This document shows, one piece after another, positions 25,427 through 64,000 of a DNA stretch of 64,000 nt (position 1 is the first letter of the stretch; each line of letters starts with the position of its first letter). The notes below the pieces were generated by a model. The model was not told where the DNA came from and searched no databases. It saw nothing but the letters and a program-made list of their open reading frames with translations. The stretch spans positions 1,499,797 to 1,563,796 of the forward strand of contig NC_090597.1 in the NCBI RefSeq assembly GCF_000497125.1, written 5' to 3'. Source of the DNA: Spironucleus salmonicida (taxonomy: Eukaryota). The position numbers were made by a program, and so were the translations under genes.

Positions 25427-25465
25427 TATTATTATATATTAATATATATATTTCACCATACAAAT

Positions 25466-26251: not shown

Positions 26252-26702
26252 CGATTTGGATTTTTCGGTAGCTTGTGATTTTAGATCATTAGGTGATTAG
26301 CAGCTTTTGAAATATTTTAATTTAAATAAGATTATATAGTAAGAGACTAAGTATAATCATATATTGTTTCTAAAAGATTAAGAAAATGCATCTAAGCTAA
26401 TTTAGCCATGTGTGATGAAAAGATTATATAATTTGCTATTAGGAATTGAAAGAAATAAATATATTCTAGTGGTGTGACGCGTAGGTTATTGGAATACGTT
26501 TAAGTTCAGATTATCCTAAGGAGAATAACTGTCTAAACATTTCTCTAAAGGAACTTCAATACTTCTAAAAACTAGAATAAAAGATTTATATATTGTTTTA
26601 ATCGTTAAACATAATAATTCTTAAGAATAGTACATATTGCTTCGTATATTACCTAGCTTTTAAATATCTATTTTAAAGAATTACAATAACTATGTAAATA
26701 AA

Positions 26703-36453: not shown

Positions 36454-36504
36454 AACATTACCCCATATATATAGTATAATATGTATTTATAATAAACATT
36501 TTAA

Positions 36505-39500
36505 ATGAATCTTCTTCCAGTGGATATTTTATCTACCATCTCTAAAATAAAGAATCTTATTAAAAGGTAAGACTTATAAACTAATTAAGGATAGGCTATA
36601 ATTTTATATCATTAACTATACGAATCAGCTGTTGATATCATTGCAGCAGATGAGTAAATTAATGAACTATACATTCAATTTGTGTCTTATATTAACACAG
36701 AATATGTGAAAAAAACATTTGAAACCGAAATTTGTTCATTATACTTAATGAAAATATAATTCCCAAATCCATACGAGTACTTTATGTTTTAAGTATTAGC
36801 CTTAAATGACTACTAAATACCATCAGAAAATCTACGTATTTTTATTGATATAGTCATTGATTGCAAAGTAGGCGATATTATTAGAATGCTAGCTTTTAAT
36901 ATACTTTATTCTCCTAAAAATTATTAAGCGACTAATTCAATATTTAAAACATTAATTGACAAGAATCTTGATTCTAAGAACTTCATTAAGAAGTAGAGAG
37001 AATGTGTTCCTTATGTTTAATTAATTCCTTATATATTCTCAACTAAAATAGATGAGGAACATTTATATCATCTACTGTCTGGTAAATTCGATTTATGTCA
37101 ACGATATGTAATGAAAACTATGTTATCATCCACAATATCTCTACTTGTATATTAGTCATCTACCCAATAACTCTTGCAACTTGTTGGATAGAATATTAAT
37201 AAAGTTGTTTCATGGCTATCTGATAAAAAGCACTTCTCTGCAGCTTTCGTCCCTCTAGTAGAATATGCTATATCTGCACCATAATTCTTAATTTCACCGA
37301 ATTTTACTAAACTTACTATCGCCCTTAAGGCGAATCCCGTATAAGCTTTCCCAGCCGTTATTAGGCTGATAACTTCATTATGCTACGAAGTAGACATATT
37401 TGATACGAAATTAGTGTAAAAACCTCTTGTTAATAGTAACAAATATCTTATTGATATAGCAATTCTAGTATTCTAAGCTGTGTCTAAACATTTTTCACCA
37501 AAAAACTTATAGTCAATTTAACAAAAAATGCTATAGTTTGATTAGCCTATTTAATAATAATTATCTAATATAAAAATTATATACTTTAAGTTTTTGCCTT
37601 ATTTGAGTATGCTACCAGCAGATTAATTTTTTATTCCATAAGAGTATATTTTACTTGGTTCTTTGCTAGTTTCATGTGATAAAAATCTAGCTAAGCGTTT
37701 TGAAAACAATACATTTGTATAATTTGTGATATTTTCTGATACGTAAAACTTTGATCCCGTGTGCTTGGATATAGTTTATTAGTCTAATATAGAATATTTT
37801 TTTAAGTTGGCAATTATATAAAAAGACATTAATATGTATGTTTAAAGTATTTCACATTTAATTTCTAAAAATATTGTGTAAATTAGCAAAGCAGATTTGA
37901 TAGTTTTAGTAAAATAGCAGATAGACTTTTCTGTTTTTTATGGTTAAGAGCTATTAGCTGTAGTTATTTAATAGATTAAAAATCGATAGTGGGCGATAGA
38001 TGGAATTTAAATATTATAACAAAGTTTGAAATAATGTTATAAATTGGTTAATAATAAATTAATTTATAGTTTAATTTTATTATATTTAACAGATTTTTAG
38101 AGTGGATAAGATGCTATAGATGGATTTATAAGATTTACTTATAAAAAATTTTAATCAAATTATCCAGATGGCTTATTTGATTCAAAATAATCATTAATTC
38201 AATCATTCATAAGTTCTGAAAATATAGAATTTGAAAATTATATTGACAAGTAAATTGTAAAAGATTTATCATAAACATAAACTATATATTCGAATCGAAT
38301 ATTACTTTTTTATTTTGTAAATAATTAATAGCATTAATAATACTTTATTCAGTAGTTTTTTAATAATTGGGATGAGTAGTCAGCATTACTTTTTTCCAAT
38401 AAATACACTATTTTTGATAACATTACATAAGGTTCTGTTATTTCGATATAAAGTGCAGTATAAGATTCGTTATAATTAGACTACAAGTATCAATATTCTA
38501 ATAATAACATAAAAGATATGGCTCCCAATCTTTTAGAATCCGCTATTTTATAATCAAATACTTTAGTATTATCTAGTAATTTTGCTTAACTTTGTACATA
38601 GAAACTTTTATCAATTATAAGTTCTTCAGAAGTGTAAAAAATTATTTATGACCTTAATAAGTCGAATTAATAATTAAATTTAACCTAGCTTTTTGATTTT
38701 ATGTATTAGCCACTGTTTGTTATAGCATTCACAGCATTATAACATAATTTCTGTTTATTTATTTAACATAATAAATTAGAATATTTTAATAATGTTCTTT
38801 TACTATTAACACCATTTTTACTATTATTAAATCATATACCGTCATTAGGTTTATTTTTAAAACAGTGTCACGTCAAAGATGAATCTAAAGATAAAATTAT
38901 TATTAGCTAGTATAAAGATATTACATCAGAATTATATATGAATTCTATTTTTTATCTGCTTAAAGATGAAAAGCTAATTATTTTTATCAATAATATACAT
39001 TACAAAAAGAATTTCAATAACTTTTTACTGTAATTTGGTTATTAGTAATTATGTTTATTTATGAATAACAAAGTTATACATTAATATGTAGACTATTTAA
39101 CGTTTGAAGAAAAATAATTGCAACCAGATAAATAATATAAGCCTACCTAGTCGATTTAAGATGGAATTTAAAAGTTAAAATTTCTATCAGCAATATATTA
39201 GTATTCTTATGTTAATACTTATGATGTGTTCTAATTTATAACCAGCTTTTATGAAAATAATTTATACATATTTTAAGTGTATTATTTTGAATAAGTTGTA
39301 TACCATATCCTCTCATATTTAAAAACCAATCTGCAGTATTCTAAGTTTATTATAACTATTTTTTAATTTTATTAAAATAAAGATCCACGAATACCTATGC
39401 TTTTTATTGAAAAATTATTGTAGTCCCTGATTCAATGCATCCAAGACAACAAATTTTCCCTTTTAACTAGTTACGATTATGAACTCTCAATCAATTTAGA

Positions 39501-42500
39501 GTAACTGTTCGAAATCGAGCCATCATTATAGATTCCACTTTATTGCTAAGATGCCTCAGAGCTTTTTGATTACCTTAAAACATAACCATAATTTGATTTA
39601 TAATATTTCGAGTCAGTGATATTGAAGCAGGATTTAGCAAAACGCGCATCATTTGCTTTTGATACACTTATAACACTCGATCAGGCTTAGTAGTATTTCA
39701 CAGTTTCATAGACTCTATTACTTGTTTTTATCATTGCAAATGATGCAAGAACTATCCAGTATTCAAAATAGCTTATAGACTGTCTCATGTCGTCAACAAT
39801 ACTCTCTAAGACTTGGGTGAAGAGTTTGTTATAAACAATGTAATAAATAGATATTCCACCTTACTGCTTAGAACATTATAATCAGATATTATAGAAGTCA
39901 TAGATTTTTATTCCAGGAACTTTATGGTTTGTTGGATAATTAAAGAGAGATTATGACGTATATTTAATCAATTTTGAGCTTAATGGGAGTCTAAAGGAGC
40001 TAGTTTGCTTTTAAATATAAACATTTTTGACCTTTTCGTTCTGCATTTAAATCGATAATTTTACGTACAAACCATCTTAATTTTATGAGACTTTTTTTGA
40101 AAATTCACTGCAAAATTCAGATCAAACTTCAGAGTCAAACACGTCGTCATCGAATTTATCAGCTACGCTAAACTGCAGGCAATAAGAAAATTATCAGCTT
40201 TCTGAGCTGTTTTTAAACTTATATTTCGTACTTATTTCTCTGTATTAGTATCCAGAATTTGAATCAATTTTTGTAAAGCAAATCCTGAAAAAGTTTGACA
40301 CAATAATCATAATCAAATTTATGTAGTTTTATACTCATAACAAAATATTCCTGAATACTTACTAGTTAAACGTTAGTGAGGATTTAAAGCAGCGGGAATC
40401 AGTGTAGATTGTTGAAAAGTAAAAGAAAAAAATCATTAAAAAGAGTACGAATATTTTTGTATCTGACACTGATAGGTAGGTTCCATTTAAAAAATAGTCT
40501 AAACAGAAGCAAAAGTATTAAATTTCACACATTAGTGAAATGTTTGAGACTAATTTTGACTACAAACTGATCGAGTCAATTGTGTTGCGCTTAGCAGTCT
40601 CTTAGTAATCGTAAATTATTCAGGAGTTGATAAACTTCACTTTTTTAGATCAATCTTATGATTCAATAAATATTCTGCAGTTCTCATCCTAATAATAGGA
40701 GTATATTTACGGATTTGTTGCGCGCAAGTTGATTGCTAAAATACTGAAATAAAGTTTTTAAAATTCGATCAAGATAGAGCCTTATTTACTTGTTACATCT
40801 CTGGTGGTATTGTCAATTGATGGAGTATATACTGATTGTTTCAAATCAGATAATAATAGTAAACCTTCAGAAAAATCAATGCAATAGGCATATTAACGGT
40901 CAGAATTTAGTGTTATTTCATCATCAAGTAGGAAATAAGTAAAAATTGCTCATATAGAGTAAGAACAATAACTAATATAAGCTTTAATTTAACTATAGGT
41001 GCCATCATTTTATTTCTTTCAAATTTTGTTGGACGAGAAACTTGAAAATCTTAATAATATCACTATTTTGCTCTAACGATTTCTCATACAACCACATCTT
41101 CTTTTAGATTATCTTCATATACTTACTCTGTAAATAAACCAGCTTGGTATTATTTCAGAAATGCAGGCACCGTGGATGAACCCAGACAAGTTTGTTCTTA
41201 CTACGTAATTTCAAGCAAAAATTACATATTCAATGGCAATTATTATAGATGAAAGAGGCGTTCAAAGTGCAATTAATCGCACGAATGCATTGACCATGAT
41301 ATAAGATGGGTTAAGCAGTCAAATATTCAAGGATAATTTCTCTCTATTACCTGAAGATAGAAACTAAATGTTTATTATTTCATTATTTAAATCATATATC
41401 AACTAAATGTAGCTCTTAGATTTCAACAATAGTGATATAATCTCATAATAAAAAATAATTTTAGAGAATATTATTATTTCCATACTACTAAATGTTATTG
41501 AAAAGTAAACAATTCGGCTAGTATAACCATTTGTGAAAATGATCAAAGTACTTTAATATTCAAAAATTTCAGCCATATTTGCATATAAGTTATTATACAT
41601 TTTAATAAATCACGCACCATAAACGTTAATTATCAATTCAAGTGTCTAATTTTATCAAACCCTTTAAAACTCTAATTTCAATAACTGTTTTAGATTCTTT
41701 AACGCGCAGTTTTATTTAGATTACAATAATCTTATATCTCTCCCAGGGCATCCGAAATCATTATTGTCCTCTTACTAATTATAGTGCGAGAACATTTAAA
41801 CATGGTTTAAATCATCAGTTTAAGTAGAAAATCAAGCAAAGCCACCATAAAAATCGTGTACATAGTTCTGCACAACATCAATCGAGTCATCTATAGCAGA
41901 TTTGAATTAATTCCTTTCAGTAAACTTTGATATGAAGAAACTTGCGATTCTCGCCCCATTTTCAGCAAATTTTCTCTGCTTTTCGCTCACGCGATAGGAA
42001 ATGTCATCAATTAACTATAAAGCACTACTTTTATGTCAATTTTTTAATATTATTCTTTAGCGGCATTTCAACAAATAAACACCTATTTCTGAGTTTGCAA
42101 ATACGTTCGCCTACACGATGAAGTATGCAAATTCGATTAAAAAAATTTAAAAATAGGAACAGTTCTACGATATAATTTCTTATTTATTGCTATTGCAAAA
42201 TTTGGATTTTGGCGTGCAACTCCCTTCCACTTCCACTTCTTTTTCAACTAAAAATTTGCTGACAAACTTGATCGATGTTGACGAAAATCTAGCAAATTCT
42301 CTAATCCAGATAATGAAATTCCGCAATTTGCAGTTCAGCGCTTTGTTTTTGCTGGTCCAGGTCGTCCGAATGCTCAACTCGGACGGCTCGATCAATGCGA
42401 TTCAGAGCATCAAATTCATTGATTTCGACGATTTCGCGGCGCCGGAAATTCGCGAAATCTACAAAAAATTGCAGGGGAAAATCAATTTCAAGACAGGAAA

Positions 42501-42558
42501 TAAGGGGCAATGCGAGGTCTATTTAATGTATTCTGAGTTTAAAAAGGAGTTTGAGTGA
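36505..42558 (+). CDS. Large HEAT/ARM-like scaffold protein, 2017 aa
   Basis: ATG 36505 (MNLLPVDILSTISKIK...) is in frame with track fragment 42187-42558 and ends KKEFE-TGA. Helical-repeat-like composition. Confidence 0.7.
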
Positions 42559-42568
42559 ACATAGAATT

Positions 42569-43114
42569 TCATAGGTCGTCCTCGTCATTGACGGGATCCT
42601 CGCTGGGTTCCTCGTCTTCCTCTTTCAGGCCCTCCACAAAAAAGTCGTCAATACCGCGCATTAGGCCCTGGTACACACCGCCGACGACTAGTTCTTGGAT
42701 TCCCTGAAAGTCCTTGCTTTTGCAAATCAGCCTATCGCCGATGAGCTGGTAAAATTTTGTTTCAATTAGTTGCGTCATGATGCCGCTCCCTACCTGGAAA
42801 ACTGCGCTCACAAAATCGTTACTCTGGTCTCTCTCAAGGTCTCTCAAAATTGCACGCACTCCCTCCCCTGGAATATAAATTTCAGCTAACGCTTCAAATT
42901 TAACTTTGAAGGCTGCAACTCCTTAGTGTGTAAGCAAGAGGGGAGCAGGAATCGGCTCTTGGGATGGTTTTATTGATAGGATGCGGCCAAAGCGGTAAGA
43001 TTACTTGTTGTATAGTCGTTTTTAAAGAATTTAGATAAGTGCCTGCTGGTATTATGAATGAAAGTCAGGGGGAGCTAGCTGCACCGTTTCTGTAGCTGTA
43101 ATTTTAAAGAGCAT
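42569..43114 (-). CDS. RNA polymerase subunit, RPB7/RPC8 (Rpb7/C25) family, 181 aa
   Basis: MLFKITATETVQLAPPDF...ILQKRLYNK...FGRILSI...GVAAFKVKFEALAEIYIPGE matches the Rpb7/RPC25 N-terminal pattern. I cannot distinguish Pol II from Pol III by eye. Confidence 0.75.
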
Positions 43115-43165
43115 TGAGAAAAGGTGAATATAATGATTATTATACAAATAAAATAATTATATTTA

Positions 43166-43717
43166 TCATTTAATACCCAGGCTTGATAGCAATTCCTACA
43201 TGCTGTGCTCGCCACTGCTGCTATCTTCTTAAATTTATAAACTATTTATTAGTTCTTCTACTTTGCTATGATATTATTCATGTGATATTTCTAAAAATTT
43301 TGTCTTAACAGTTTCAACAGAAGATACTGATATGATTAACTTTATTTCTTCTAATTCCTTGTATATCTAGTTTATATCAAAATTAATTTCATTAAGTTGA
43401 TTCTCTTAAATTGTTTGTAGGCAATTATTAAAATCATACTGCAAAGATTTATATATAGTTAGTTCTTTTAAAAATTTAATATTTTCTTGCTCACATGTGT
43501 ATTATAAGTCGTAATAATCTAAATCTAAAATTAAAGCAGCTTAAGGGCATAGTGATTTTAGAACAGTATTTCTTTCATCTATTAATATTGATATTTATTA
43601 TTAAATAAAATTTACAACTTCAAGCTACTAAGTTTATTTATAAATTGCAGGTTATTACTTTGGAAATTAGTTTTATATTTTATACGGATTAAAATTCGGA
43701 GACTGAGGAAGATTCAT
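43166..43717 (-). CDS. Hypothetical coiled-coil protein, 183 aa
   Basis: ATG 43717 (MNLPQSPNFNPYK...), ends ...LSSLGIK-TGA at 43166. Confidence 0.6.
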
Positions 43718-44709: not shown

Positions 44710-45591
44710 TCATAGTTTTCTAGCAGTCCCAGTGAATTTTGTTTAGTCTTTAGCCGCTTTTTATTATATTTTAGCCTCCTTCTTATCACCTTTAGAAGCA
44801 CCAGCTGGCGGTTAAGCTGGTACATCGCCATTCAACGTCTAAAATTCGTGTGGCTTTTATTATTGCTATTATTGCTATTATTGCTATTAGCCACCCATAG
44901 GATTTCCAGCTGGAGGAGCCTAGATTTCTCTTAGCTAACCAAACAGTTTACTAGGGAATACTAAAGCTACTATCACTGCACTTAAAGTGTACCATATTCC
45001 CTACCAAGGAGGATAGAGCATCAATTGGCACATAACAACCAAAATTATTAAGTAAAGCCAAATTGGCAAATTACAGCAGCAGCAACAAAGAACATTCTTT
45101 CTTTCATTGATTCTGGCCTCGAAAAAGGTGAGCAAAATGATGAGCGTTGTCGGCCCAACTGCTGCTGTATCAAACCAAAAATCGTGAAAATATGACCAGT
45201 AATTGATTCCCGGCACGAGGCCAAAAAACGCTGCGAAGCAAATTCCGATGAGCGAAACTGCAAGCAAACTCCCCAAAATGATGCTAACAAATCGCAACGG
45301 AGCGAGTCTGAGTTCGAGCTGGGAACCAGTAAAAAACACCATCATCCCGACGAAAAGGGTGTTCCAAAGTGACGGGCAGATGAAGTGCGTAGTCAAAAGA
45401 CGCCAAAGCTCAAATTTGATTATGGTGCTGTTTGGATTTAGTGACAGATATGCCGCCACGCTGCCAAAACGGCCATAAACAGCTAAATCGACGATGGACG
45501 TAATTAGTGACACAGTGCATATAAATAGTGTACTATAAATTGTAATTTTAGGGCCTGTCTTCCAGCAAGTCCGACAATTTAGAGGCTGCAT
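44710..45591 (-). CDS. Rhomboid-superfamily (RHBDD/Derlin-like) membrane protein, 293 aa
   Basis: FELWRLLTTHF (WR motif), ELRL, several TM segments, a poly-Q tail and C-terminal FTGTARKL. TGA at 44710. Confidence 0.8.
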
Positions 45592-45712
45592 TATAAAGGT
45601 AGATTTAATTGAAAGTATATTTAATGTATGGTAATGTAAAATGTGTAGACTCGAAACATAGTATATCTTATAATATGTATAATAATAAAATTATAGATTA
45701 ACACATATTAGT

Positions 45713-47869
45713 TCACTTATATCTATTATTACTATAATTACTTGGTTTTGTTTAAACTGTTGATTTTTTAATAGCATTCGTTATCGATTTGCTCCGATTA
45801 TTGTTCTGTAGAACTTAAAACACATCAACTCTTTATGGAGGTTAAGGCATTTAATTTTAATTTTGTGCCCGCTGCCCAATTCTTATGATAGTTTCTGTCA
45901 AATCCCTTATTCCAAATTTTAACATTGCCCTGAGCTTTGAGTTTAAATCCTGTTCGACTGTTTTTTCAATTTTCTCATTTCTCAATGCCCCCTGTGGCAG
46001 TAATACTGGGCCATGAACGCCTCTGAATGCTATTTATTTTGTATCAATTCCATATTCAATCTCATAAAGGGCTTTTCGTAAAATAGCTTACATTGGATCC
46101 TCTTTTTCGATTTCTATAGGTTTTTCCTTAAATGATTCCTCAACTTCTGACTAGACAACAGATGAGCCTTACGAAGTTTATGATGGTATTCGCTATTTGA
46201 CTGATTATGGCCTAGATGATTGCGATGCTGGTCGCGAGCTTGGTTCTACAGACTAAATTATAGTTCGCGATTATACATTTGATAATTATTATGTCCTTGA
46301 TCCAATTCCCCTTGGAAGTACTTTTTCCAACATCTAAGCAGATTATTTTCGCACTAATGGTTGGCGAGCTATTGAACTTGGTTAATGCTACTAATCTTAT
46401 TAATTGCCCTTTGGATACTTTATTTTATAAATTATTGCTTCATATGGGTCTTTGAAATTAATAGGGGGAGGATAAATTTGTTTAAATGTATCCTAATTTT
46501 TCTGTAAAAATTAGAATATGTGTTATTAAACTGATGAGTAAGTAGGCATTTATTTAATAGTTTTTAGTCCAGTGGATTTTTTAGTAATCTTTGATTTTGG
46601 TTTTGATTCAGCTTGCTGTGCCTTAATTTTGTCATGCTGTTTACCATATAATCGTTTCATACTATTAACTTTTTCGATTTTTTAGAAAAGTATTTTATCA
46701 TCTTATTGTATATCTAACATATCTAGAACTCCTGAAATCAGATTTTACTTGATTCTTAAATCCAAGGGCGTGTCACATCTAAAGCTAGGTGAGTGATTTA
46801 CTTCAATGAGTATAGGATTGTTATTTTGGTCAATCATAATATCAAACCCTAAAATTTCAAAACATGAACTACCAAAATACGGCTCTTAATTATCATATGG
46901 ATTTTAATCACCAAATCTGGGTTATGTAGGTCTAGCCGAAGAGTATGCATGTTAAAGGTTTGGTAATATACCTATTACCGTTTTAATCATAACGGCAAAC
47001 ATTTTTTCCTTAAAAACTTGAACATCTATTCCATCTTCTTCCATTTTTTACCAAATTGCAGATAATCCCCATTTTGAACCCGCATCATCTACTTCTTCGT
47101 CGTCATTAAATTCAAAATTATCATTATTTTTATTGATAGCATAATTTGTTAGATGCATGAATGCTTTCTTCAGATTTTTAGAATTCGGCTCCTGGTAAGG
47201 CTCTGTACAAAATCTAGCCATACCATCTTCATAATAAATCATCTATAAAGTAGGAACTACTTATATGACAATAACATATGTTCTAAGATCAAATTTAATG
47301 CCATTAATTAAATAAGGTTTTGTAATGTATTCTTATATTACTTGTGGTTCTGAAAGATCTACATTTTCAATATTTCTAAATAGCTTTATACCTCTCCCTT
47401 AACATGATGCATTGGGCTTTGAGATAAAAACCATCTTTTTGTCTTTTTTCTATTAATGATAAAACTTAAAGTCTGTAACATCTGAAGGGATCTAAAATGA
47501 CTATGGGAAGAAATCATAATCATCAGGACATAGCTTTCTAGCTCTATTCATGTTTCTAGCTAATGTATCTTTTCTGGTAATTTCTGACATTCCAGGATAG
47601 TGATTTATTTTTTGATATGCCTTCATCCTCATAACTCTCTCAACCAAAATCGACCAGTCATTCCAACACAGATTCCAATCGTCAGCTTCAGTACACTCTT
47701 TCCATTTTCGTTCTTCGGAAAGATCATGTACAACTGTATATTTGCACTACTCTAAACATGCACGGACTCTATATTTCTTAAGAACTTTCTATACAACTTA
47801 AGTTTCTTACTGATGTAGTCTCACTTTATCTACATGATTATCATTTGAATATTCACCCAATTCTTCCAT
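45713..47869 (-). CDS. Tubulin polyglutamylase, TTLL6/13-like, 718 aa
   Basis: WNLCWND...[22 protein letters not shown]...[35 protein letters not shown]...[20 protein letters not shown]...[10 protein letters not shown]. Confidence 0.93.
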
Positions 47870-47977
47870 TAAAATTCCTCTTTTGTTAAAGTATAATATA
47901 TAATATTTATTTTAGCAAAAACTTTATTAAATTTTCAAATCATATTTAAAATTAATCTTTTCTTAACCCGTTCCTAT

Positions 47978-49393
47978 ATGCCGCGTGAAGAGTCATCTGA
48001 ATTTTCTTCGTCTTCATCTATTTAATAAGAACAAATTGAAAACGATAACGACATCGAAAACTATAAGGAAGCTGATCTGAATGCCCTGAATTAACTCTAA
48101 GTAGACGAACAAGAAACTCAGGATAAAACTTACATTCCTCAAGCAGGCCAGCAAGATCTAGAGGCTAATCCCGAAGCCTACGATTGTCTCCTCAAATTCG
48201 ACATCGATTGGCCTATTCTATCACTGGATTTCGTCAATTTATATACTGCCACTCCCACCAGTGACCCACAGCTTATTTTCCTCGGTGGATCATAAACTGA
48301 CGGCTCCGAAAAGCCACAAATCTCTCTATTTTCTATCCAAAACTTTACCTCCTACTCCCCAGAAACAGACCCAGAAGCAGAACTAGAAACTTTTGATGTA
48401 GAGCCAATCTTCCAAAGACGTGTTTTCGACGTCAAATCCAACGTTACACGAGTAAAATCTAATACATAGTTCCTACAGAACCGCTATACAACCGGAAATG
48501 CAGCCGTTTTTGCATTCTGGCAGGATAACGGTCAGCTAACATTCTAATCATAGGCCTCTAATCTGAAATCACTGGGTTGCTTGACTACCACACTTGGTGA
48601 CTTCAACTCGCCGCAAACATCGTTTTTGCAGCAGGAACGTTGCTGGTGTGGGTTCCATTCCCAGAACAGCCAAAAAAGTCAAGTTTTCAACTACAACAAC
48701 GCGGGCTACGGCATAGATTTTCATAGTTTACAGTCGCTTGCGATAGCAGGAAACTCAGATAACATTTTGAACGCCTTCCAGATTCAGCAGGACGGAAAAG
48801 TTATTTAGGATGCAACAAATTTCAGCAAATTCGCGTAAAATTCGAGCATCGAGGACGTGAAATTCGCTCATACGGGTCAGTTTCTTATAAATGCCGTCTT
48901 CGGTGCCTGCAGTACCAGCGGCGAGTTCCAGCTGATCGACCCGAGGGCGAGCTCTGCGGGGCTTGTTTTCAAGGCCTCCGGCGTGGACGTGAACGTTTTC
49001 GACTTCGATTACGCGAACGAAAATCTGGTCTATTTAGGCGACGAAAATGGCGTCGTGAGGGTGTTCGACGTTCGAAATCCGACAGAGGCCATAAGCGAAA
49101 TCAAGTACCACAACGGGCCGATTACTTCTCTGAAGTCGTCTCCCTGCACAGAGGGCCTCATCGCGTGCAGCGATGACAATGGGGCCGTCGTTTTTTGGTA
49201 AATGGACGCGGAGGACGACGAGGAGGCCCTGATTCTGAAGTAGTAGGGCCTACCGAAAGAGTTCCTGTTCCTGCATTTGGGCGTTGAGGAGCCCAGGGAA
49301 ATCAGCTGGTGTGGCTCCCACGAGGGCTACTTAGCGATTGCAGAGATGAACGGTATCTAGCTAATTAGACCCATAAACCTGGTACCTGAGTGA
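47978..49393 (+). CDS. GRWD1: Glutamate-rich WD40 protein GRWD1/Rrb1-like (ribosome assembly), 471 aa
   Basis: Acidic N-terminus, LEANPEAYDCLLKFDIDWPILSLDFV, SIEDVKF, WD repeats, and C-terminal LPKEFLFLHLG...REISW. Confidence 0.85.
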
Positions 49394-49406: not shown

Positions 49407-49913
49407 TCACTTAAACTTTATTTTGGAATCTAACTTTGTCAGGAAGCTTCGCGTCCGATTCGGCGAAAATCGATCCGAATTATTAAATTTAACTGCAATT
49501 TTGGTAGGAGAAATTGCAGCTCTATGGTAACGTTAGGGGTCTACAATTGGGTTTATATATTTATTTTTTAGGAACAAATTTTCGTTGTTTTTGAAGCGCT
49601 CGGATATCGCCAGGTTTTTTGTGAGAGTTCCATGGTCACTAATAAGCTTTCTCGATTTCTCATGATCATAAAATTAGTCGATTTGGTCATTTTAGAATTT
49701 TGATAGAGTGATGATTCGATTTGAGTTGTTGATTGTGAGGTCTAATTAACTATGTGGCCTGATTTATGTAGGGCGCTAATAAGTGTTTGAGCCGGGGGTG
49801 TCTGGAAGAATAAATTTAAGGCGTGCTTCAGTCTAGTCATATAAGACTTAAGGTGAACGCCCCTTTAAAATAGGAATAGATGATCTCATATGAGATGAAA
49901 TCGAATGCGGCAT
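49407..49913 (-). CDS. Hypothetical basic protein with one SHIPPO-like motif, 168 aa
   Basis: ATG 49913 (MPHSISSHMRSSIPILKGR...), contains DTPGSNTY, ends KIKFK-TGA at 49407. Confidence 0.6.
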
Positions 49914-50013
49914 ATTTTGAAATCATTATATTATTTAATTTAACAGATTGAGTTTCCTGTTCTGTATATATGATAATATTATACTTTTAATGATATTGTT
50001 TTTCTATTATCTA

Positions 50014-50562
50014 ATGCGAGATTAATACAATAACGTAAGATTAATATATACACATGAGTCTCGGACAAGTTATATCCCGAGATCTCTTACTCCGGGCCCT
50101 GCTTCCTATAAAATATAGACACATAATCTTAGTTAAGGTGTAAAATTTGGTCGTGGTTATTAGCTTGATGAAGATGTTAAAGAGAGGACATTCAAGGAAA
50201 CATAAAAATTAATCTCATCACGTACCCCAGGTCCTCAAGATTACTAAAATTTTACAGTTACTTCTCATGTGGATGGACCTTAGATTAAAATAAAGTAAAA
50301 GTATCCTACCAAATATGCAAAATCCCCAGGCCCATGTGAGTATTCGCCCAAAATATAGGTGAAATCAGAACGTGATATCCGTATAGGTATTAGACTATAA
50401 GAAATACGCAACCAAAAAATTTCACCTGGGCCTGCCGCATATTTTAATGACTATTTAGATAGAGCCAAACCAGCTAGCCCTGGGTTTAAAATATCAGCAA
50501 ATGGAGGTCAAATAGATAGATAATAAAGAAGGGTTATACCTATTTAAATGAATGTGAAATGA
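50014..50562 (+). CDS. SHIPPO-repeat (ODF3/H-SHIPPO-like) flagellar protein, 182 aa
   Basis: Four PGP repeats: TPGPASY, TPGPQDY, SPGPCEY, SPGPAAY. The start could be 49990. Confidence 0.85.
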
Positions 50563-50671: not shown

Positions 50672-52582
50672 ATGTCGATCTGGGAATAAAGGCGCAAAGA
50701 ACGCGAATAATAAAAATAGACAGTATCAAATGCCCCAACTTCTCAATCAAAGAATGTAAAGTAGTTTCCTTAGCCAAAAGCAGGACCAACAATTGCAAAA
50801 GGAAATGTACCAAAGCCGTAAACCTCTCAAATAGCGCCTCCTAATATAGTTTCTACATCAGCAATTAAAAATTTAGTTGCTAAACCTATTTCTGATGAAT
50901 ATGGAGGAGCTATGAATTTATAGGATATGTAGAATGAAAAGCTAAGTTTCAGCTAATTCTAAGAGTAGAAGAATGACGTTCAAAGGTAAATGACTTAATA
51001 AGGTTATTAAAATCAACAACAGGGTTAATAATAATAGTAATAATAGCATTGTTAATAGCCTATAACTCAATAATTTGAAGATCCTAGAGCCTAATAAATT
51101 GATAAAATGAATTAACTAGGTAACAAGGAATTCAATATCGGGGGCAACGAACAGCCAAGAAGATAACATATTTAAGCGGATGAACCTTAGTAATTAAATT
51201 AAATTTCTACTAGGCAGCAATAAATTGACAAAATGAACTAAGGGTAATAACAAGGGTTCTCAATGCCAGGAGAAAGAAGCTAACAGTAACGTTTACCATA
51301 ATAAATTCAACAATCACCTTAGTAAGGCTATCCACAACAAGAACACCATGCAGGGCCTAAAATGGTTCAATAAAGAGCTAAGAAACCATCAGAAATGTCA
51401 AAGCAAGAATATGAAGAATATGAAGCTTAACTTTAAAAGAAACACCACTATACCCTCATTCAGAAAGTTCTATATGATAAAAGTGTTACTACGTTCGATA
51501 AAATGGATTGTGAAGGCTTGCGAAAAGTTGATAAGGAATTTGCTAGACTATATGATGCAGAATTCAACAAAAAGGAAGCTGTTTTAAGAGAGCAGTAGAT
51601 TGAGATTGATGAACAAAATCGCAAAAAAGAATATGAAAAACAGCAAGATCTATTCCTGTAGCAGTAATAGAGTCAATAAATTAGCTATCAATAACCACAA
51701 TACGCCACCAAGTAATAGACATTTTCACCCCCATAGGCCGAGTTCGATCATTACCAAAGAGCATATTAAAATTAAAATTAATTTTCAACCGCTCCACCTC
51801 CTCAACAAATCCAACACGAACTAGACGACCTCAGAAAAGAGGTTATTATGCTTCGCTAAAAACTACAAAATGCCGAATATTCTGTAGGAAAATATGAAAA
51901 ATAGATAACAGAGCTTAGTAACGAGCTTCAAGATGAGCGTCATCAGCGTATATAGGCCAATAAAGCTGTTGATGATGCCTAGAGAGATATGGTGATTCTC
52001 AGAGACGAATTGTAGACTTTTCAGCTTTAAGTTTAGCAGTTCCAAAAAATCGACTCCGAGTAGTAAAAAATGTAGAAGGTGATTGATTTTGCTTAGGAAA
52101 GTTATAAGCCTTCGGAAAAGAAGCTCACTGTTGCGGATAAGCTACTTTCTAATGCTAATGCGGTACTCGACAAATATCAAGATTTGGGCGGAACTTTCAA
52201 AGAAACTACTTCTCTTAAAGCAGAATTTCATACAATACATGCAGATGAGGATTCACCATTACCAGTCTCACGCTACAACTATTAGCAGACTATTGAGACA
52301 AAGAACTCAGTTATTCCATCTTCCTAAAATATGCTTAGAAACGATAACGACTTGATGTCAACTGACGAAATGAACCTGCCTCCAGTAAGTATCCCAATGG
52401 CGATAATGGATAATATTCATGACGTAGAAAGCAGAGAAACGAATGGAAGGGATATTAGGAGCCAATAGAGTATGTTCAATACGAATAATTTGAACAGTAT
52501 GCTGCCATCAAGTAATTACAATAGTGAGGACGTCGTAAGGAAGTATGCTGGCCTTCCGAGGCCCAGTAGCGGTTAAAAGTGA
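50672..52582 (+). CDS. Gln/Pro-rich coiled-coil protein, 636 aa
   Basis: ATG 50672 (MSIWEQRRKEREQQKQ...), long Q tracts made of TAA/TAG/CAA/CAG, ends RPSSGQK-TGA. Confidence 0.75.
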
Positions 52583-52591
52583 GGAAATTCG

Positions 52592-55500
52592 TCAGTATGA
52601 GTTGCTAACAACTTTCATGAACACGCTCTCCAGACTCGTCTGGTTTAGACCCCAATCGCTAATACCGCTATCTGGATTCTTCATTAATGTCTCCATTTCT
52701 CCAAAAATCATGCTAACTTTGAGCTCTGGTGGCACTGCGTACACCATCTGGCCCTAATAACAACTAGTTAAAATAAGACCCCGGGATACATCCAAGATCT
52801 TACTATGGACCTGCTACTCCAAATCGCTCGAAAGGTATACAGAGCCAACGTAGACACCCTGCTGAGAAGGCTATAATTTATCTTTATTTGCACAAATTCT
52901 TAGCTAGTATCCAGTTCCGAACTTATGTTGAAGATGTTGCTAAGCTCCAATCGAACGGATTTTGCCTTCTGCCATAATAGCGATTCGTGTAGAGAGGCAT
53001 TCTGCCTCCTCCATGGCGTGTGTTGTAAGTAGAATCGCGCGCCCTGTTCTCGCTTTTAATATTACATTCCAAAGCTGTCGACGTGTCGATACATCTAGTC
53101 CAGAAGAAGGTTCATCGAAAATAAGCACTTTTGGCCGATTGCACAGTGCAATTGCAATTGATAACCGACGTTTCATCCCTCCCGAAAGTTTTTTGGATGC
53201 CTTATTTGAATATTATGTAAGTTCAACGGCATCAAGGAGATCAGAAATATGCTCAGATTCAATTTTGCTGTCGGTACCTTTAATTTTCGCATAGAACTGT
53301 AAATGTTGTCTAATAGACATAGTGGGATATAAAATATCAAACTATGGGCAGATTCCCAAGTTATCTTAAATTTGTTATTTTTAACTGCTATCAGTAATTG
53401 ATGAACCACAAACATAAGCTGTTCCAGAAGTTGGTTTAAAAAGCATTGAAATCATGTTAATTTAAGTAGTTTTCCCACACCCATTACCACCGAGTAGGCA
53501 AAGGCACTCGTTTTCACCAACAACATAATATATACCTTTAACAGCGTGCTTTGCAGCTGTTTAACGCGTTCCAGGGAATGTTTTCTTTAAATTTACTAGC
53601 TTAACAAGAGCTTTAGTTCCGTTTGATGCTATATTTTATTCCACCAATTTTTTCTCGTTGGCCAAATCTGGATCATTAGAAGATAACTTGTTTCTTGCGT
53701 TTATAGCCTTTTAGATATTTTTGGTTTGAGACTAATCAGATGTTGATCTCATATCTTTTGTCTCCGACTTTCCTCTTAGATAGTCGAAAGTGGTTGAACC
53801 GCCTGATTTTTCGATTTCTGAATCCTCATCTTCAACTTAATCATCTTTTCTGTTTTTAATAAGGAATGTATCAACTTCTTTTTATGATACTAAAAGCACC
53901 TTAGGATTGATAAATATCTAACCAATAGCCCAGAAACCCTTTCTGAATGATATCTCTTATGGCAGAATATTATTTTTGACGCATGCTCGAACATAAACAT
54001 GATATAAGAAGAACATTGGATGCTCTGGTATTCCGTTTTTTCTAGGGGTTATTTTGTCTAAATAAATTGATATTCCTTAATATAAAAACAATACCAAATA
54101 AGAAATTAACAAACTGATCGCCATATTATAACCAGCTTGTTAACTTAATGAAGGGTTCTATGAATGCAAAAATGAAATTTGGTCGTTTGTTAGGAAATTC
54201 TCCGATTTTTAAGTAACTATCAATTAGCTCATAAGAATAACTTGTACAACTGGACCAAAGCCAGGTACAAGACTCAACCAAGGATTGACTAGATTATCTG
54301 GATCATCTGAATCATACGATTAACTGACTAACATGAAACCACCTGCAGAAAATGCAAGAATTATAATAATAGCAACAATACTAGAAAGTCTACCAGAATC
54401 AGTGACACTAGCAATTAATTGACTTAAAATTGGAACATTAAGAATAAAAAGGATAAAACAGAAAAACCAACCAACGGGAGAGTTTGATGTAATTAATTCC
54501 ATTTTAGTTCCACCATAAATAGCTGTAATAATTATTCCTAAAACAAATGCAACTATAAGGGCAAAAGTAAAATCGGCATAAAATCTAGGATAATAACGCA
54601 ACCCCATCATCTGTTAAAGTGAAATAAGACCGTCTCCTTTTTCTTGACTAAATTAAAATGCAAAAATAGGAATAAGTAGATAAAACGATAATGGTAAAAG
54701 GAAGCATTAAAATATTGGTGTTGACGGATCAGCCCCAGAATCCTAAGTAGTTGCCCAAAATTATTTATAATAGCCAAATACAGTAGGAGGGCTGATTGTG
54801 TTAGCCGGATTAAAGTGAAAGCGCAAAGTATTTTAAAACATTGCATATTGAGTACCACAATACCTTTAAAAATTAGTAACGCCATAACCTAAAGAAGTTT
54901 AATGTGATGTATATCCGGAAATATAATAATTATTTACTACTTTATTAGTGTTAGTAAAAGCAGTATAGAAAATACCCGTAGAATACATATCCGTTTCTTA
55001 ATACATGGATACAGTATTGGTATGATTAAACCAATCAGATGGAGGTGGGGAGGAAGGTGTTGGTTAAATAGATGCTTTCATATATCCTTCCATGATACTA
55101 ACTACAGCCTTAGCTTGATAAGCAGCATAGTCCTCATATCCGGTTGTTTTAACTGTGAAATAAGGATACCAATAAAGAGACTAATAACTAGCTGCATTTT
55201 AAATATTTGGCAGTGGAGCTTTTTAATATCTTAACTAATTTATATTTTAGCCTTACCAAAGAAGATTAAAGCCTGCGAGATATCCAGTACAAACTGTAGT
55301 ATTAGTACAAGTCCCTAGAGTTTTTTCATTAGCTATCGATGCAAAAATATTAAAATTAATATTTGCAGGGCTACCTTCAACGGGGAACTTCAGCACATCA
55401 TTACTAGTAACAGAAGTAGATGGTTTATAGTTAGCAACATAAAATCCATGAAGATAACCTAATACACTAGATAGTATAATTACAACAACAAATATTGAAA

Positions 55501-59420: not shown

Positions 59421-61085
59421 ATGTAAGAATCAGAATTTGTCATTTCATTAGAGCCTTAGACATTTGAAATATTATAATAGAGTGTGGTTAATACGTAATA
59501 AATAGAGGAAAAACCTTATGTCAACGAGAATCCTTTCGATCAAATTAATGAAGTAATGTCGTTATTAACGAAATCAATTAATGGATTTGATCGATCTAAG
59601 CTTACAATAAGTTTACCAGAAAAATAGAAAATAATAACTCATTTGGATATAAATATTTTATCAATTCCATAAATTGAAATTGAAGAAAATGGTGAATCAC
59701 TTATGTGCTCTGTACATTCAATTAATTAAGCTCCAGAAGTAGATATAAAATGTCATGTTACTAAAGATGAAAATTAAAAAGAAGTTTACTATGACAATAA
59801 AAACTATTTAATAGATGATACACATATTATTAATTATTAAATGTAAAATGATTTAAATCAATTAGCCGATAAAGTTCAAGTATAGAACTATAAAGATGAT
59901 ATTCGAAAATTAAAGATTTAGCTTCAGGACTATAAGGAGAAGCAAGTTAAATATTATTAAGATACAGTCTAACCATTACGTAAAACTCACCATCATAAAT
60001 AAAGCACAGAATCTTTTATTCCATCTAATTTTTTGAGTAATAATATTCATCATAATATTCTTGATTAGGTGCAATCCCTAAATGCATCTTCTTCTTAGGC
60101 AGCATAAAGCATATTACAAGATGATCCATTTAATGAATTATTATAACAAAAGGCACAGCTTTAACAGGACGATATGGATTTTTATAAACAAAATATTGAA
60201 AAAACAAAATAATAGCTACAAATTTTTACACTTGATAGTCCTAAAGCCGATAAAAAGCCTATTTCTATGCATATATAATAATTATAAACTTAATTAAACA
60301 GTATCCCTTTAAAATAATAGAAAAAAACATCACATTTAAAATAATCGACAAGCACTTTAAAGTCCAATTATTAGTAAGATATTTGGCTTGAAAAACAATA
60401 GAAAGTTAAGTTGGAATGTTAAAAGCTTATTGTATCGTCAATCGTAGGCACCGATGATTTTTCATAATAGTAAATAAAGTAAAGTCTTAATAATACTACT
60501 CTATCTGACTAATAATATACTTAATAAAACTGTAATTTAACATAATCAATATAAACTATAAATAATAACTAGACAGAATAGTTAAACCAATCCTAGGCCT
60601 ATTCGAAAGATGAACAGACATAATCTATCAATGAAGTACTTACATCTAGTTTTGATGATTACGAGGTTATGTCACCAAATAGAAAGTCGTTTTAACAAGA
60701 TTAGTTGTTATCTAAATATACACAAGAAAATTAGTGCATGTAAGTCTCATTTGATATAAAATCGCGGTCAGATTCTCTTATTTTAACAAACTCTGATATT
60801 GATAAAGATGTTATCAGGAGCAAGGTCAATTAATCCTAAATTACATCAAAGTCAACAATTGAAGACAAAAACTCTATAATAATTGAAGATTTATAGCCTA
60901 TTTTACAACTTTAACTTCCAACGTAAAATCTTTCTGATTTCACTTAACATAAGATAATTTCAGATCGAACTTTACAAGCTAAATTATAATACAAAAAATA
61001 GCAGATATCAACTTTATAAGAGCGAGCAGAGGATTTAAAGCGGCGTTAATAGTTAGTATAAAAACGAAAATGTTCTAAAAAGTGA
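59421..61085 (+). CDS. Hypothetical Gln-rich/coiled-coil protein, 554 aa
   Basis: ATG 59421 (MQESEFVISLEPQTF...), ends KRKCSKK-TGA at 61083-61085. Confidence 0.7.
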
Positions 61086-61094
61086 AAAGTTGTA

Positions 61095-61688
61095 TCACTT
61101 AATTCCACCTACCTCATCAAAAAACTAATCTAAAAATGATTATAAAAACATAGTACGCTGCTCTGCTATCTATCTGGTTTCTGGTAGGTTCATTTTATAT
61201 TAAATCTTTAATAACTTGTCATAAAAATGTTAAATTGAACATGTTTTATCTTCTGCGTTCCATATTGCACGCCCGCATCCACCTCCATATGCACAGCATC
61301 TAGCAATGCCAACTGCACCGATTGCATCTAGTCGATCTGCATCTTATACAATCTTTCCTTCAATTGAATCAGGAACCGCCCCTTTTGAGTAAGATATTGA
61401 ATTTATGATATTTATAACTTCTTACGATGTTTCTAAATTGATAGAAATGGAAATCATAAACTTTGTCAAAGTAAGTTATCTATCTTCATCTGAAAATCCA
61501 AATTTGTGATCCATAGCATCGTGAAGAAGCGCTGCAAATTAAATTATTAATAATGATGAATTTTCATAATTTTATTATATAGACACTGAAGTTGATAATA
61601 CTCTTAATGAATGGTCAATGTCATGAGCAGTGCACTTGGTATTACTCTTGAGGAAATTAAGGCATGCATTGTATTGTTCATCATTCAT
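61095..61688 (-). CDS. HD-domain phosphohydrolase, bacterial YpgQ/YedJ-like, 197 aa
   Basis: AHDIDHSLRV...AALLHDAMDHK...ISYSKG...[27 protein letters not shown]...HFYDKLLKI...AEQRTMFLQSFLDQFFDE is the complete YpgQ/YedJ motif series. Confidence 0.9.
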
Positions 61689-61767
61689 TTATTAGGAACG
61701 TGAATTTATTAGTTGTGTTAAATACACTAAACAAAATATAAAATAGAATAATATAGAAACTACAAAA

Positions 61768-63351
61768 ATGAAGCAATTTCGAGATCCGATTTATAACTCA
61801 ATAGAAATTGAAAACTATGCAATATTCATAATTAATTCACCAGAATTTTAAAGGCTACGTCATTTGCGATAATTAGGTGTAGTATATCTTGTTTATCCGA
61901 GTGCAAATCACACCAGATTCGAGCACTCGCTCGGGGTGTACCACCTGACGAAGATAGCGCTAGACCACCTCAATGCCCAGCTGCCCGAGAGCCTGAGCGA
62001 CAGAGTTACGAAGATAGTGAAGACGGCGGCGCTGGTGCACGACATCGGCCACGGGCCATTCAGCCATTTGTTTGAACAGATCTTGCATAAAAACAACATC
62101 AAACTAGACGGAAAGCAGATCTGCCACGAGAGCATCGGTTGTGATGTGTTCCGGAAAATGATGCAGCGTATCAAGATGGATGTGGGCATGGACGACCATG
62201 ATATCGACTGTGTGTGCAGCTTGATTACGGGCCAGGAGGCCGACGACGAGACCTTCAAGAAGTACTTCTTCCTGAACCAGATCGTGTCCAACTCCGTCAA
62301 CGGCTTGGATACTGACAAGATGGACTACCTGCTGCGGGACTCGAGGTCGGTTGGCTTGGGCCTCACCATCGACCCTATCCGCATTTTAAAAAACCAATCC
62401 ATCTTCAAGTACCCCAAAGACAGCACTGGAAAGTACTACCTCTCGTCATCCCAAAAGACTAAGTTTGACATCATGCAGGTTTATCATACTAGGTATATTT
62501 TAACAAAAATTATCTATTAAACATCTAAATCAATAGCATGGGATTTAATAATATTATACATATTTGAATAAGCGATTAAATTTAAATTAATTGATATTCC
62601 AACATTATATAAACGTGATGTTTTACCAGATGATAGAATATTAGGATATATTTAATACTTACATTAATAAATGGATTGCCCTTATAAGTAATTATAAAAT
62701 AAATTAGACGTATTAGATTATCATAATACACCTACAGTAGTGTTTGAGACTTCTATAACACATAATTGTGAGTTAACATAAAATATTTCCTCGGATATTA
62801 GGGCTTAAAAGATTAAATAATTTATTTAAGATCAAACTGAATTATAAAGCAATTTGTTTGAAGTTGTTATATCAGATATAAAATATGGTGTAAAAAACTA
62901 AAATCCATTAGATTTTTTACCTATTCATAACAAATAAACTGTATTTACTCCTACTAAATTTGCTGAATAATATGGAAGCAAATCGAAGCTATAATCTTAA
63001 TCAAATAGTACTAATGAAAATTCCCAATATCCTTAAACGCCTGTTAGACTTATGCCGCCAGTTTCCATAGATAATGCAGCTACCTAAGATATGTTAATGC
63101 CTAATATTTTTAAAGAAACTCTTTTGTACGTTTTCATTTATACTAATAATTTATTTTCGTAGAATCAGTTAAAGGAATCAATACAGAATTTTCTATTAAG
63201 CTAAAATTTAAATAATAATGAGAATAGTATTTAACTACTCACTGATAACTGTTTAGAATATAATGATATCGTACCTATTACCATATCCCCACTTCTTACT
63301 ACACATAATAATTTTCCTTTACCAGAAGACTGTAAATCTGATGATAAGTGA
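61768..63351 (+). CDS. SAMHD1-like HD dNTP triphosphohydrolase (no SAM domain), 527 aa
   Basis: MKQFRDPIY...SPEFQRLRHLRQLG..YLVYPSANHTRFEHSLGVYHL...AALVHDIGHGPFSHLFE...CHE...NGLDTDKMDYLLRDS; ends DDK-TGA. Confidence 0.92.
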
Positions 63352-63359
63352 GATCACTT
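63346..63359. terminator. Paired AGTGA stop/polyadenylation signals of convergent genes
   Basis: AAGTGA-GA-TCACTT. AGTGA overlapping the stop codon has been described as the poly(A) signal in Spironucleus, and 13 genes in this window end in AG-TGA. Confidence 0.6.
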
Positions 63360-64000
63360 TTAATTCATTTTTTCACATTAGTTATAGATAGTTTATGCTA
63401 TTGCATCACTAGTTTAACCAAAATTACATCTTAATTTAACGGTGTCAATTCCTAAATGTACAATATCTACATAATTATTAAAACCAGCCTGTTTTAGTAT
63501 TTATGCCCGATTATTTCCTACTTATGGAATCTCTAATAATTCAGTAATATCATCTGAAATTTTTTCTTTAATTTAGTTAAGATATTTTTCAAATAACGAA
63601 TAAATTATTAATTTTCTTTGTTAAGCAAACATTTTAACTTGGAATAAAATGGTTGCAGGAGATTTTAGTTAAACATCATTAGAATTTGAAAAAGCTCGAG
63701 AAATATTTATTATTTACTGTAAAATGATATTCTTAATTGTTTTTTTATTATTGGATTATATTTATAATACTTCTAAAAGTATTTTATCTTATGATATTAT
63801 ATCATCCATATTAATTTAGTACTAAAATTCTACTTCTTATGATAAAAATGAAGAAAATGACTATTATGTCAACAAATGTAATAATGATGCTGGAGGAGAA
63901 TATGAGAATAGGAAAATAGAGACACTATCAAATGGATTAATACCATATTTCTTAATTTACTCAAAAAGCTGATCAAAATAATACGCCTAATAAGGGGATA
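63354..64000 (-). CDS. 3' end of probable HELQ/Hel308/POLQ-type Ski2-like helicase (5' part lies outside the window)
   Basis: The frame ending at TGA 63354 reads ...ISDDITELLEIPQVGNNRAQILKQAGF..., the helix-hairpin-helix motif (L..I.GVG..RA..L..AG) typical of Hel308/HELQ C-termini. Confidence 0.55.

Follow-up and report, generated by a model that had tools for sequence, protein, structure and literature searches.

We analyzed a 64,000-nucleotide window from the genome of the salmon parasite Spironucleus salmonicida, a diplomonad (contig NC_090597.1, positions 1,499,797 to 1,563,796; all coordinates below are those of the window), in which two genes encoding different HD-domain hydrolases, one of the YpgQ family and one of the SAMHD1 family, lie head to head. 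On balance, the locus probably consists of two separate housekeeping genes, both expressed, for nucleotide-pool hydrolases, and the SAMHD1-type gene is probably a mosaic that arose by recurrent GC-biased gene conversion. The mosaic, a GC-rich tract of 604 base pairs (bp), is a new observation at this locus and is more notable than the gene pair, which is ordinary in itself and whose members had both been annotated before as HD-domain proteins. An earlier note on this DNA had proposed that the two genes form a co-regulated module; its description of the genes and their products was confirmed, whereas the proposed co-regulation found no support in the data assembled here.

Genes were modeled by translation with NCBI table 6, in which TAA and TAG encode glutamine (Gln), and long open reading frames (ORFs) appear in the window under this code only. 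The window is AT-rich, with approximately 19-30% GC in most 400-bp bins. Translation of both strands with this code reproduced the head-to-head arrangement described in the earlier note, with 79 bp between the two ATG codons. The features of the locus are as follows.

61095-61688, minus strand: YpgQ-family HD gene, 197 amino acids (aa), 11 TAA/TAG Gln codons, 32% GC
61689-61767, no strand: spacer between the two ATG codons, 79 bp, 19% GC
61708-61748: presumed overlap of the TATA zones, 41 bp at -20 to -60 of both ATG codons, from spacer arithmetic and PMC3916229
61768-63351, plus strand: SAMHD1-family HD gene, 527 aa, 24 TAA/TAG Gln codons
61884-62487, plus strand: GC-rich tract in the SAMHD1-type gene, residues 40-240, 604 bp, read as an interlocus gene-conversion tract

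The exact protein sequences of both genes are already public for S. salmonicida in NCBI, UniRef, and EukProt, so the start codons and gene models agree with the public ones. Locus tags were assigned by elimination, giving SS50377_14352 for the YpgQ-type gene and SS50377_14351 for the SAMHD1-type gene. Among the rows listed in the supplement of PMC6397501 (up to 6673), at least four are 'HD domain' rows (SS50377_11574, 14340, 14351, and 14352). Among the same rows, SS50377_14351 is the sole one besides 14340 that is orthologous to the Giardia dGTPase, and SS50377_14352, which adjoins 14351 by tag, is an HD protein entered as 'noGene' for both Giardia isolates.

Within the SAMHD1-type gene, the GC content jumps from approximately 25% to 50-54% over a stretch that extends from about 61880 to 62490. 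The tract at 61884-62487 has a GC content of 50.7%, with values at the first, second, and third codon positions (GC1, GC2, and GC3) of 0.49, 0.29, and 0.74 (74.3%), respectively. In the flanks of the same gene, GC3 is 0.21 before the tract and 0.17 after it, whereas GC2 is unchanged (0.29 in the tract vs. 0.26-0.27 in the flanks). When GC3 was calculated in 20-codon windows, it ranged from 0.6 to 1.0 within the tract and from 0 to 0.35 outside. Additionally, all 24 reassigned Gln codons of the gene lie outside the tract; within it, Gln is encoded by seven CAG and two CAA codons and by no TAA or TAG. All four catalytic ligands of the enzyme (H53, H91, D92, and D183) are encoded by the tract. 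Protein conservation alone does not make the DNA GC-rich, because residues 379-403, located outside the tract, are identical between the paralogues at 24 of 25 positions yet have a GC3 of 0.05-0.15.

The closest match of the SAMHD1-type protein is its paralogue SS50377_14340 (EST45769.1, 531 aa, 'DGTP triphosphohydrolase / HD domain-containing protein'), which is 11 locus tags away from the window copy. The two proteins are 100% identical over residues 41-240; outside the tract, identities counted from the alignment amount to 23 of 38 residues on its N-terminal side and 127 of 248 aligned columns on its C-terminal side. Public contigs were compared over 60000-64000, comprising two DNA runs from one sample (X1 and X2) and two likely-RNA runs from a second study (X5 and X6). 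Both DNA runs contain a unitig of exactly 604 bp that corresponds to 61884-62487. Its depth was 323.5 vs. 149-176 for the flanking contigs in X1 and 21.7 vs. 9.3-12.1 in X2, and no variant letters within it were reported in either run. At the left edge of the tract, a 27-kb contig from another locus joins alongside the window's own 24.5-kb contig. The double depth, the two left flanks, and the lack of variants together indicate that the tract is identical in two genomic copies.

The likely-RNA contigs bear on the same edges. An X6 contig at 61777-62886 crosses both edges of the tract with the window's own flanks and comes from the other study, which argues that the mosaic is not an assembly artefact; based on this contig, the window copy of the SAMHD1-type gene is probably transcribed. 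A further likely-RNA contig, from X5, covers 62458-63528 of this region. The X5 contigs that leave the tract do so at both edges, and their 30-letter ends, translated by eye, encode LRHLRQNGMA and SRYVLNKIIY, which are the SS50377_14340 residues bordering the identical block. The ends have 33% and 23% GC, respectively (counted by eye), indicating that the immediate surroundings of the tract in the paralogue are AT-rich too. Thus, the GC island and its edges are the same in both copies, and its surroundings are AT-rich in each. No third copy at 90% likeness or more was found among the contigs. At 63088-63120, an X5 contig matches 33 bases with two mismatches and then runs into other sequence at both ends. 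This match appears to be the paralogue transcript over the conserved DMLMPNIFKET block, a short AT-rich similarity outside the tract.

GC-biased interlocus gene conversion between duplicates is known in mammals and yeast. The tract resembles such conversion in that identity is confined to it, the flanks have diverged, and the GC enrichment, located nearly entirely in third codon positions, stops at its edges; compared with known conversion, its edges are exact to the base by the unitig evidence and it coincides with the catalytic core of the enzyme. A single recent conversion explains the identity but not why the GC island of the donor ends exactly at the tract edges. Repeated conversion, limited to a stretch similar enough to pair and with repair biased to G and C, explains both the identity and the edges. 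We therefore take as the best reading that GC-biased gene conversion has recurred within the catalytic core only; the repair bias and the recurrence are what we infer. Under this mechanism, the 604-bp core would be kept identical to the second copy through repeated gene conversion, and repair favouring G and C would turn it into a sharp GC island. Conversion would be confined to the stretch still similar enough to pair, making the process self-reinforcing, and the N-terminal 39 and C-terminal 287 residues would have drifted to approximately half identity. These first 39 and last 287 residues presumably contribute part of the SAMHD1 allosteric sites and tetramer contacts.

The tract is also in line with what has been published for this genome. 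According to the paper on the chromosome-scale genome (PMC9509377), duplicated regions of S. salmonicida (2 kb or longer, with an identity of 95% or higher) have an average GC content of 44.7% vs. 30.7% elsewhere, and gene conversion was invoked there for surface-protein genes. The tract fits this GC excess; unlike the duplicates in that survey with its 2-kb threshold, it is sub-genic and, at 604 bp, far below the threshold. A literature search found no paper joining 'biased gene conversion' and 'Spironucleus'.

The SAMHD1-type protein gave a Pfam HD match (2.4e-10), and its residues 1-389 align with human and mouse SAMHD1 over their catalytic domain (2.6e-34 to 5e-31), which upholds the family assignment made in the earlier note. 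The best structural chain was 9mr6 (1.2e-42). The metal ligands were intact as claimed, with H53, H91, D92, and D183 all kept. The alignment to SAMHD1 also showed H95, H100, and K184, and the blocks RFEHS, HDIGHGPFSH, and DTDK are common to this protein and mouse SAMHD1. The protein is thus like human and mouse SAMHD1 in having an HD catalytic domain over approximately 390 residues with the RFEHS, HDxGHGPFSH, DxDK, and FQRLR blocks. Unlike SAMHD1, it has altered positions in the allosteric region, a C-terminal tail of 137 residues that matches nothing solved, and two paralogous forms with an identical core. Pfam found no SAM domain, and the alignment with 7ujn_A, a SAMHD1 chain of 626 residues, pairs the first residue of the query with position 115. 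Because the protein begins at the HD domain, it is a SAMHD1-type HD enzyme and not a SAM-HD protein. The cutoff of TIGR01353 was not reached. Its closest non-Spironucleus matches showed 41-42% identity, and the Giardia 'DGTP triphosphohydrolase' showed 33% identity. A ciliate origin of the DNA, which code 6 and a GC content of approximately 25% had suggested, was rejected in view of the Spironucleus paralogue and this Giardia orthologue, and the diplomonad setting of the earlier note proved right.

In the allosteric region, read by hand from the alignment, the positions kept include the FQRLR block, the N-terminal K, and the equivalents of D202, R204, and K232, and the positions changed include the equivalents of D137 (N23), R352 (S), H376/K377 (T/S), and also N358. 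The FQRLR block near the N-terminus contributes to the first allosteric site of SAMHD1, and D137, R352, and H376/K377 line the allosteric sites. The SAMHD1-type enzymes most likely split deoxynucleoside triphosphates (dNTPs) into deoxynucleoside and triphosphate. That such an enzyme can serve metabolism and not antiviral defence in a protist is illustrated by HD52 of Trypanosoma brucei, a SAMHD1 orthologue that controls the dCTP/dTTP balance according to a review.

The YpgQ-type protein gave a Pfam HD match (1.2e-8) and aligned nearly end to end with Lin1889 (3b57, 1.1e-32, query residues 11-189), Bacillus subtilis YpgQ (5dqv, 5.6e-27, query residues 19-196), and YedJ (3gw7, 2.7e-17), in agreement with the YpgQ/YedJ-type call of the earlier note. 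Its length is also like that of these proteins (197 aa vs. 209-239 aa). It scored 84.2 bits against the YedJ equivalog model (NCBIfam PRK10119), below the cutoff of 286, and it is therefore a family relative and not a YedJ equivalog. As described in PMC8177086, B. subtilis YpgQ (5DQV) is a homodimeric Mn enzyme in which H29, H58, D59, and D124 serve as ligands, with R136, H158, F140, and H25 nearby; it hydrolyses nucleoside triphosphates (NTPs) and dNTPs and shows a preference for dGTP and dATP. The corresponding ligands here are H26, H56, D57, and D118 (4/4 kept), so that the claim of an intact metal site held for this protein as well. Three of the four other named active-site residues are identical (H22, R130, and H154, for H25, R136, and H158), and the fourth is a conservative replacement (Y134 for F140). 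The positions were mapped by hand through the 5dqv alignment, with the YpgQ numbering taken from PMC8177086 and a chain index offset of 6. The most likely activity of the YpgQ-type protein is release of pyrophosphate from (d)NTPs by means of a single Mn ion.

The nearest relatives of the YpgQ-type protein are prokaryotic, with 42-52% identity; among its 120 best matches, every named one is bacterial, none is a EukProt entry, and none is a second Spironucleus protein of this type. A look-up in the ESM Atlas returned bacterial HD clusters only. In a quick tree of the query and 80 prokaryotic homologues, the protein had a long branch (1.53) and attached weakly near Bacillaceae and Izemoplasmatales. 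No bacterial donor can be named from this tree, which contained no eukaryotic family members. Unlike the bacterial YpgQ, Lin1889, and YedJ genes, the present gene is eukaryotic and nuclear, with reassigned Gln codons and an AT-rich composition like that of the host; it also differs from YedJ in scoring below the equivalog cutoff and in its long branch without a resolved bacterial sister. Lateral transfer of the gene is likely. Its 11 reassigned Gln codons and 32% GC, which resemble host usage, indicate that it has long been resident. Among published lists of laterally transferred genes, the supplements of PMC1805757 and PMC4967989 contain no 'HD domain' or 'phosphohydrolase' entry, and the supplements of PMC3916229 gave one count row only (three files lay outside the search).

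A likely-RNA contig spans 61102-61680 of the YpgQ-type gene. Likely-RNA depths were 96 and 71.6 for this gene and 10.8 and 8.9 for the window-specific 3' part of the SAMHD1-type gene, values that cannot rank the two genes and were not used. At 61119, in an A-run at the 3' end of the YpgQ-type gene, the contig of DNA run X2 omits one letter. Because the three other runs match the window, this omission is probably a homopolymer read error.

The sequence AAAA lies directly 5' of the ATG of the plus-strand gene, and TAA lies directly 5' of that of the minus-strand gene. According to PMC3916229, 80.7% of S. salmonicida genes carry a TATA-like motif at -60 to -20 and 33% have AAA before the ATG, with a mean intergenic distance of 421 bp. 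Given the 79-bp spacer, the core-promoter zones of both genes at -60 to -20 fall on the same bases, 61708-61748. The likely-RNA contigs of X5 and X6 leave 61681-61776 uncovered, a stretch that the DNA contigs cross; in X5, 61381-61883 is uncovered as well. Such gaps are weak indications and were not used as evidence.

Short divergent spacers are routine in the window. A gene of the tubulin-tyrosine-ligase (TTL) family at 45713-47869 (minus strand; Pfam TTL match at 1.7e-69) is head to head with an unrelated WD40 gene at 47978-49393 (plus strand), with 108 bp between them (47870-47977), and the ORFs at 49407-49913 (minus strand) and 49990-50562 (plus strand, with a SHIPPO repeat) are 76 bp apart. 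These two spacers bear out the caution of the earlier note that divergent neighbours are common in this compact genome.

Expression of the two genes was compared in the table of PMC6397501, which holds four biological replicates per condition and two stress conditions, antioxidant-free medium (NAO) and 1 h of oxygen (OXY). In NAO, SS50377_14351 rose (log2 fold change +1.04, adjusted P 1.4e-5) and SS50377_14352 fell (-0.97, adjusted P 1.2e-6). In OXY, the values were +0.61 (adjusted P 0.02) for SS50377_14351 and -0.34 (not significant) for SS50377_14352. The paralogue SS50377_14340 responded like 14351, with +1.36 in NAO, although the published expression of 14340 and 14351 is partly confounded because short reads from the core are unassignable to either paralogue. 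The two neighbours are thus not co-expressed in the published RNA-seq data, in contrast to the expectation of the earlier note. We infer that the adjacency is without function. Neighbours in this very compact genome would then behave as independent transcription units despite sharing 41 bp of promoter zone.

The conservation of the pair was followed as far as Giardia. The YpgQ type is 'noGene' in both GS and WB in the table of PMC6397501, so the pair cannot be conserved there. The lack of a second Spironucleus YpgQ-type protein among the 120 best matches indicates that the paralogue 14340 probably has no such partner either. In prokaryotes, we surveyed 80 YpgQ-type loci together with as much as 8 kb of flanking DNA in either direction; the median length of a locus was 14.9 kb, and 46 of the 80 were 12 kb or longer. 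None of the 80 had a SAMHD1-family neighbour detectable by tblastn with residues 1-400 of the SAMHD1-type protein (0 matches), and a profile built from 120 SAMHD1-family proteins had no match in the 1968 ORFs at E<=10, with a positive control at 1e-114.

The view of the earlier note, a co-regulated dNTP-catabolic, sanitising, or antiviral module with one bidirectional promoter that is kept together by selection, seems unlikely to us, although it has some real attractions. Both families hydrolyse dNTPs, the organism lacks ribonucleotide reductase (RNR) and cannot make dNTPs de novo, the TATA zones of both genes coincide, and a random adjacency of this kind would be rare. The spacer is also like a bidirectional promoter in being head to head, well below 1 kb, and AT-rich, with an A-run before an ATG, and promoters of Giardia have reportedly been found to be inherently bidirectional. 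Against the module stand the significant opposite changes in NAO, the missing orthologue of the YpgQ type in Giardia, the lack of a second YpgQ-type copy to pair with the SAMHD1 paralogue, the 80 prokaryotic loci without a SAMHD1-family neighbour, and the equally close spacing of unrelated gene pairs in the window; the likely-RNA contigs, for what little this adds, do not bridge the spacer. The locus is accordingly unlike bidirectional promoters in that co-expression was not seen and the pair is not conserved in Giardia. The substrate of the YpgQ-type protein is a separate matter. In PMC6692503, AtCN-PDE1, a plant member of the YpgQ family, is characterised as a cGMP phosphodiesterase and treated as orthologous to YpgQ and YedJ, with members in all major eukaryotic groups except animals. 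If the Spironucleus gene likewise encoded a cyclic-nucleotide phosphodiesterase, the two neighbours would act on unrelated substrates. We consider this rather improbable, because the closest relatives are prokaryotic with no EukProt entry among the best matches, the YpgQ active-site residues listed above are conserved, and the sole biochemically characterised bacterial member hydrolyses (d)NTPs (PMC8177086).

For the tract, the competing explanation is that it was copied once and recently from a donor whose GC-richness had another cause (codon selection or foreign origin, for example), or else that assembly or polishing created it as an artefact. One recent event would suffice for the absence of differences over 604 bp, the window has GC-rich genes without paralogues, and a 2007 survey described high-GC3, weakly expressed genes explained by neither mutation nor selection (PMC1805757); for an artefact, the assembly may itself have been built from X1 and X2. 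Nevertheless, read-level unitigs and contigs from two studies gave the same junctions, double depth, and no variant. Both copies are AT-rich right outside the same edges, which a single event from a larger GC-rich donor would not give, and there is neither a third copy at 90% likeness or more nor a non-Spironucleus protein match above 42% identity. A single event or an artefact is therefore very improbable, and we return to recurrent GC-biased conversion in one of two separately controlled genes as the preferred account.

Several points nevertheless weigh against this account. The coinciding -20 to -60 zones make some shared control physically possible, both enzyme families act on dNTPs, and the chance of adjacency is approximately 4/8066 = 5e-4 (one YpgQ-type and two SAMHD1-type genes among approximately 8067 genes, a post hoc figure). 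The expression evidence covers two stress conditions, reads from the 604-bp tract are not assignable to one SAMHD1 paralogue, and the window genes are tied to 14351 and 14352 by elimination and not by accession. The missing partner of the paralogue 14340 was read from the match list. The cGMP phosphodiesterase activity of the plant family member leaves the substrate of the YpgQ-type protein unsettled. Regarding the tract, the AT-to-GC direction is presumed, with the paralogue DNA outside the tract known from the 30-letter ends; the DNA runs show two alternative flanks at the left edge, and the second right flank was seen in X5 only. In addition, X1 and X2 are possibly the source of the assembly, and X5 and X6, like the other runs not recorded as RNA, were assigned to RNA by guess. 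Finally, the GC-rich WD40 gene at 47978-49393 has no comparable paralogue, so that other causes of GC-richness exist.

This WD40 gene, which is RBBP4/CAF1C-like, is GC-rich over its full length (35-63% in 60-bp bins), and no paralogue of 259-825 aa was found for it at E<=1e-20. It represents a second form of GC-richness, extending over a whole gene, that conversion between paralogues leaves unexplained, and the idea that such conversion produced all GC-rich patches of the window is rejected. Further GC-rich stretches (40-45% in 400-bp bins) are located at 25200-26400, 42400-43200, 44800-45600, and 52400-53200, the last of which covers the 3' end of an ABC-transporter ORF downstream of its Pfam ABC_tran match. 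An uninterrupted ORF of 2025 codons, with 161 reassigned Gln codons, occupies 36481-42558. Close to the locus, a plus-strand ORF at 59421-61085 ends 9 bp (61086-61094) from the stop of the YpgQ-type gene, and a minus-strand ORF at 63354-63809 ends 2 bp (63352-63353) past the stop of the SAMHD1-type gene; both are convergent with their neighbours and have no Pfam match. The likely-RNA contigs of neighbouring genes overlap at 61083-61109. No tRNA genes were found in the window.

The tract is a clean natural example in which copy identity is linked to a base-exact step in silent-site GC content. It bears on the unexplained high-GC3 genes of the 2007 survey (PMC1805757) and indicates that conversion can homogenise just the catalytic part of an enzyme.

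The metabolic setting assumed by the earlier note, loss of RNR in diplomonads and reliance on deoxynucleoside salvage, agrees with PMC4967989 and PMC7762791, according to which S. salmonicida, like Giardia, is without RNR and depends on deoxynucleoside salvage. A published gene table of S. salmonicida contains two deoxynucleoside kinases and one thymidine kinase, and the metabolic map supplement of PMC7762791 includes 14351 and 14340 but not 14352. In an organism without RNR, SAMHD1-type enzymes would oppose the deoxynucleoside kinases by trimming the salvaged dNTP pools, which is a reasonable inference for their role. The two SAMHD1 isoenzymes may have common chemistry and different control. 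A more far-reaching possibility, which we put forward tentatively and consider improbable, is that dNTP pools are set by a salvage-and-degrade cycle with two SAMHD1 isoenzymes, the core of which is held identical by GC-biased conversion while their regulatory lobes diverge, and with a YpgQ pyrophosphohydrolase of bacterial origin beside one of them; the opposite responses would then be a switch between two pool exits, to the nucleoside or to the monophosphate. If so, the YpgQ/SAMHD1 locus would be a small dNTP-catabolic locus, and the opposite responses would be no sign of independence.

A literature search, judged by title, found no paper on dNTP catabolism by such enzymes in salvage-only diplomonads. 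These results indicate that a scavenging parasite without RNR keeps two SAMHD1-type enzymes that would destroy dNTPs together with a bacterial-type putative (d)NTP pyrophosphohydrolase. In salvage-only diplomonads, dNTP catabolism is therefore plausible as a control point and may be a weakness of relevance to drugs.

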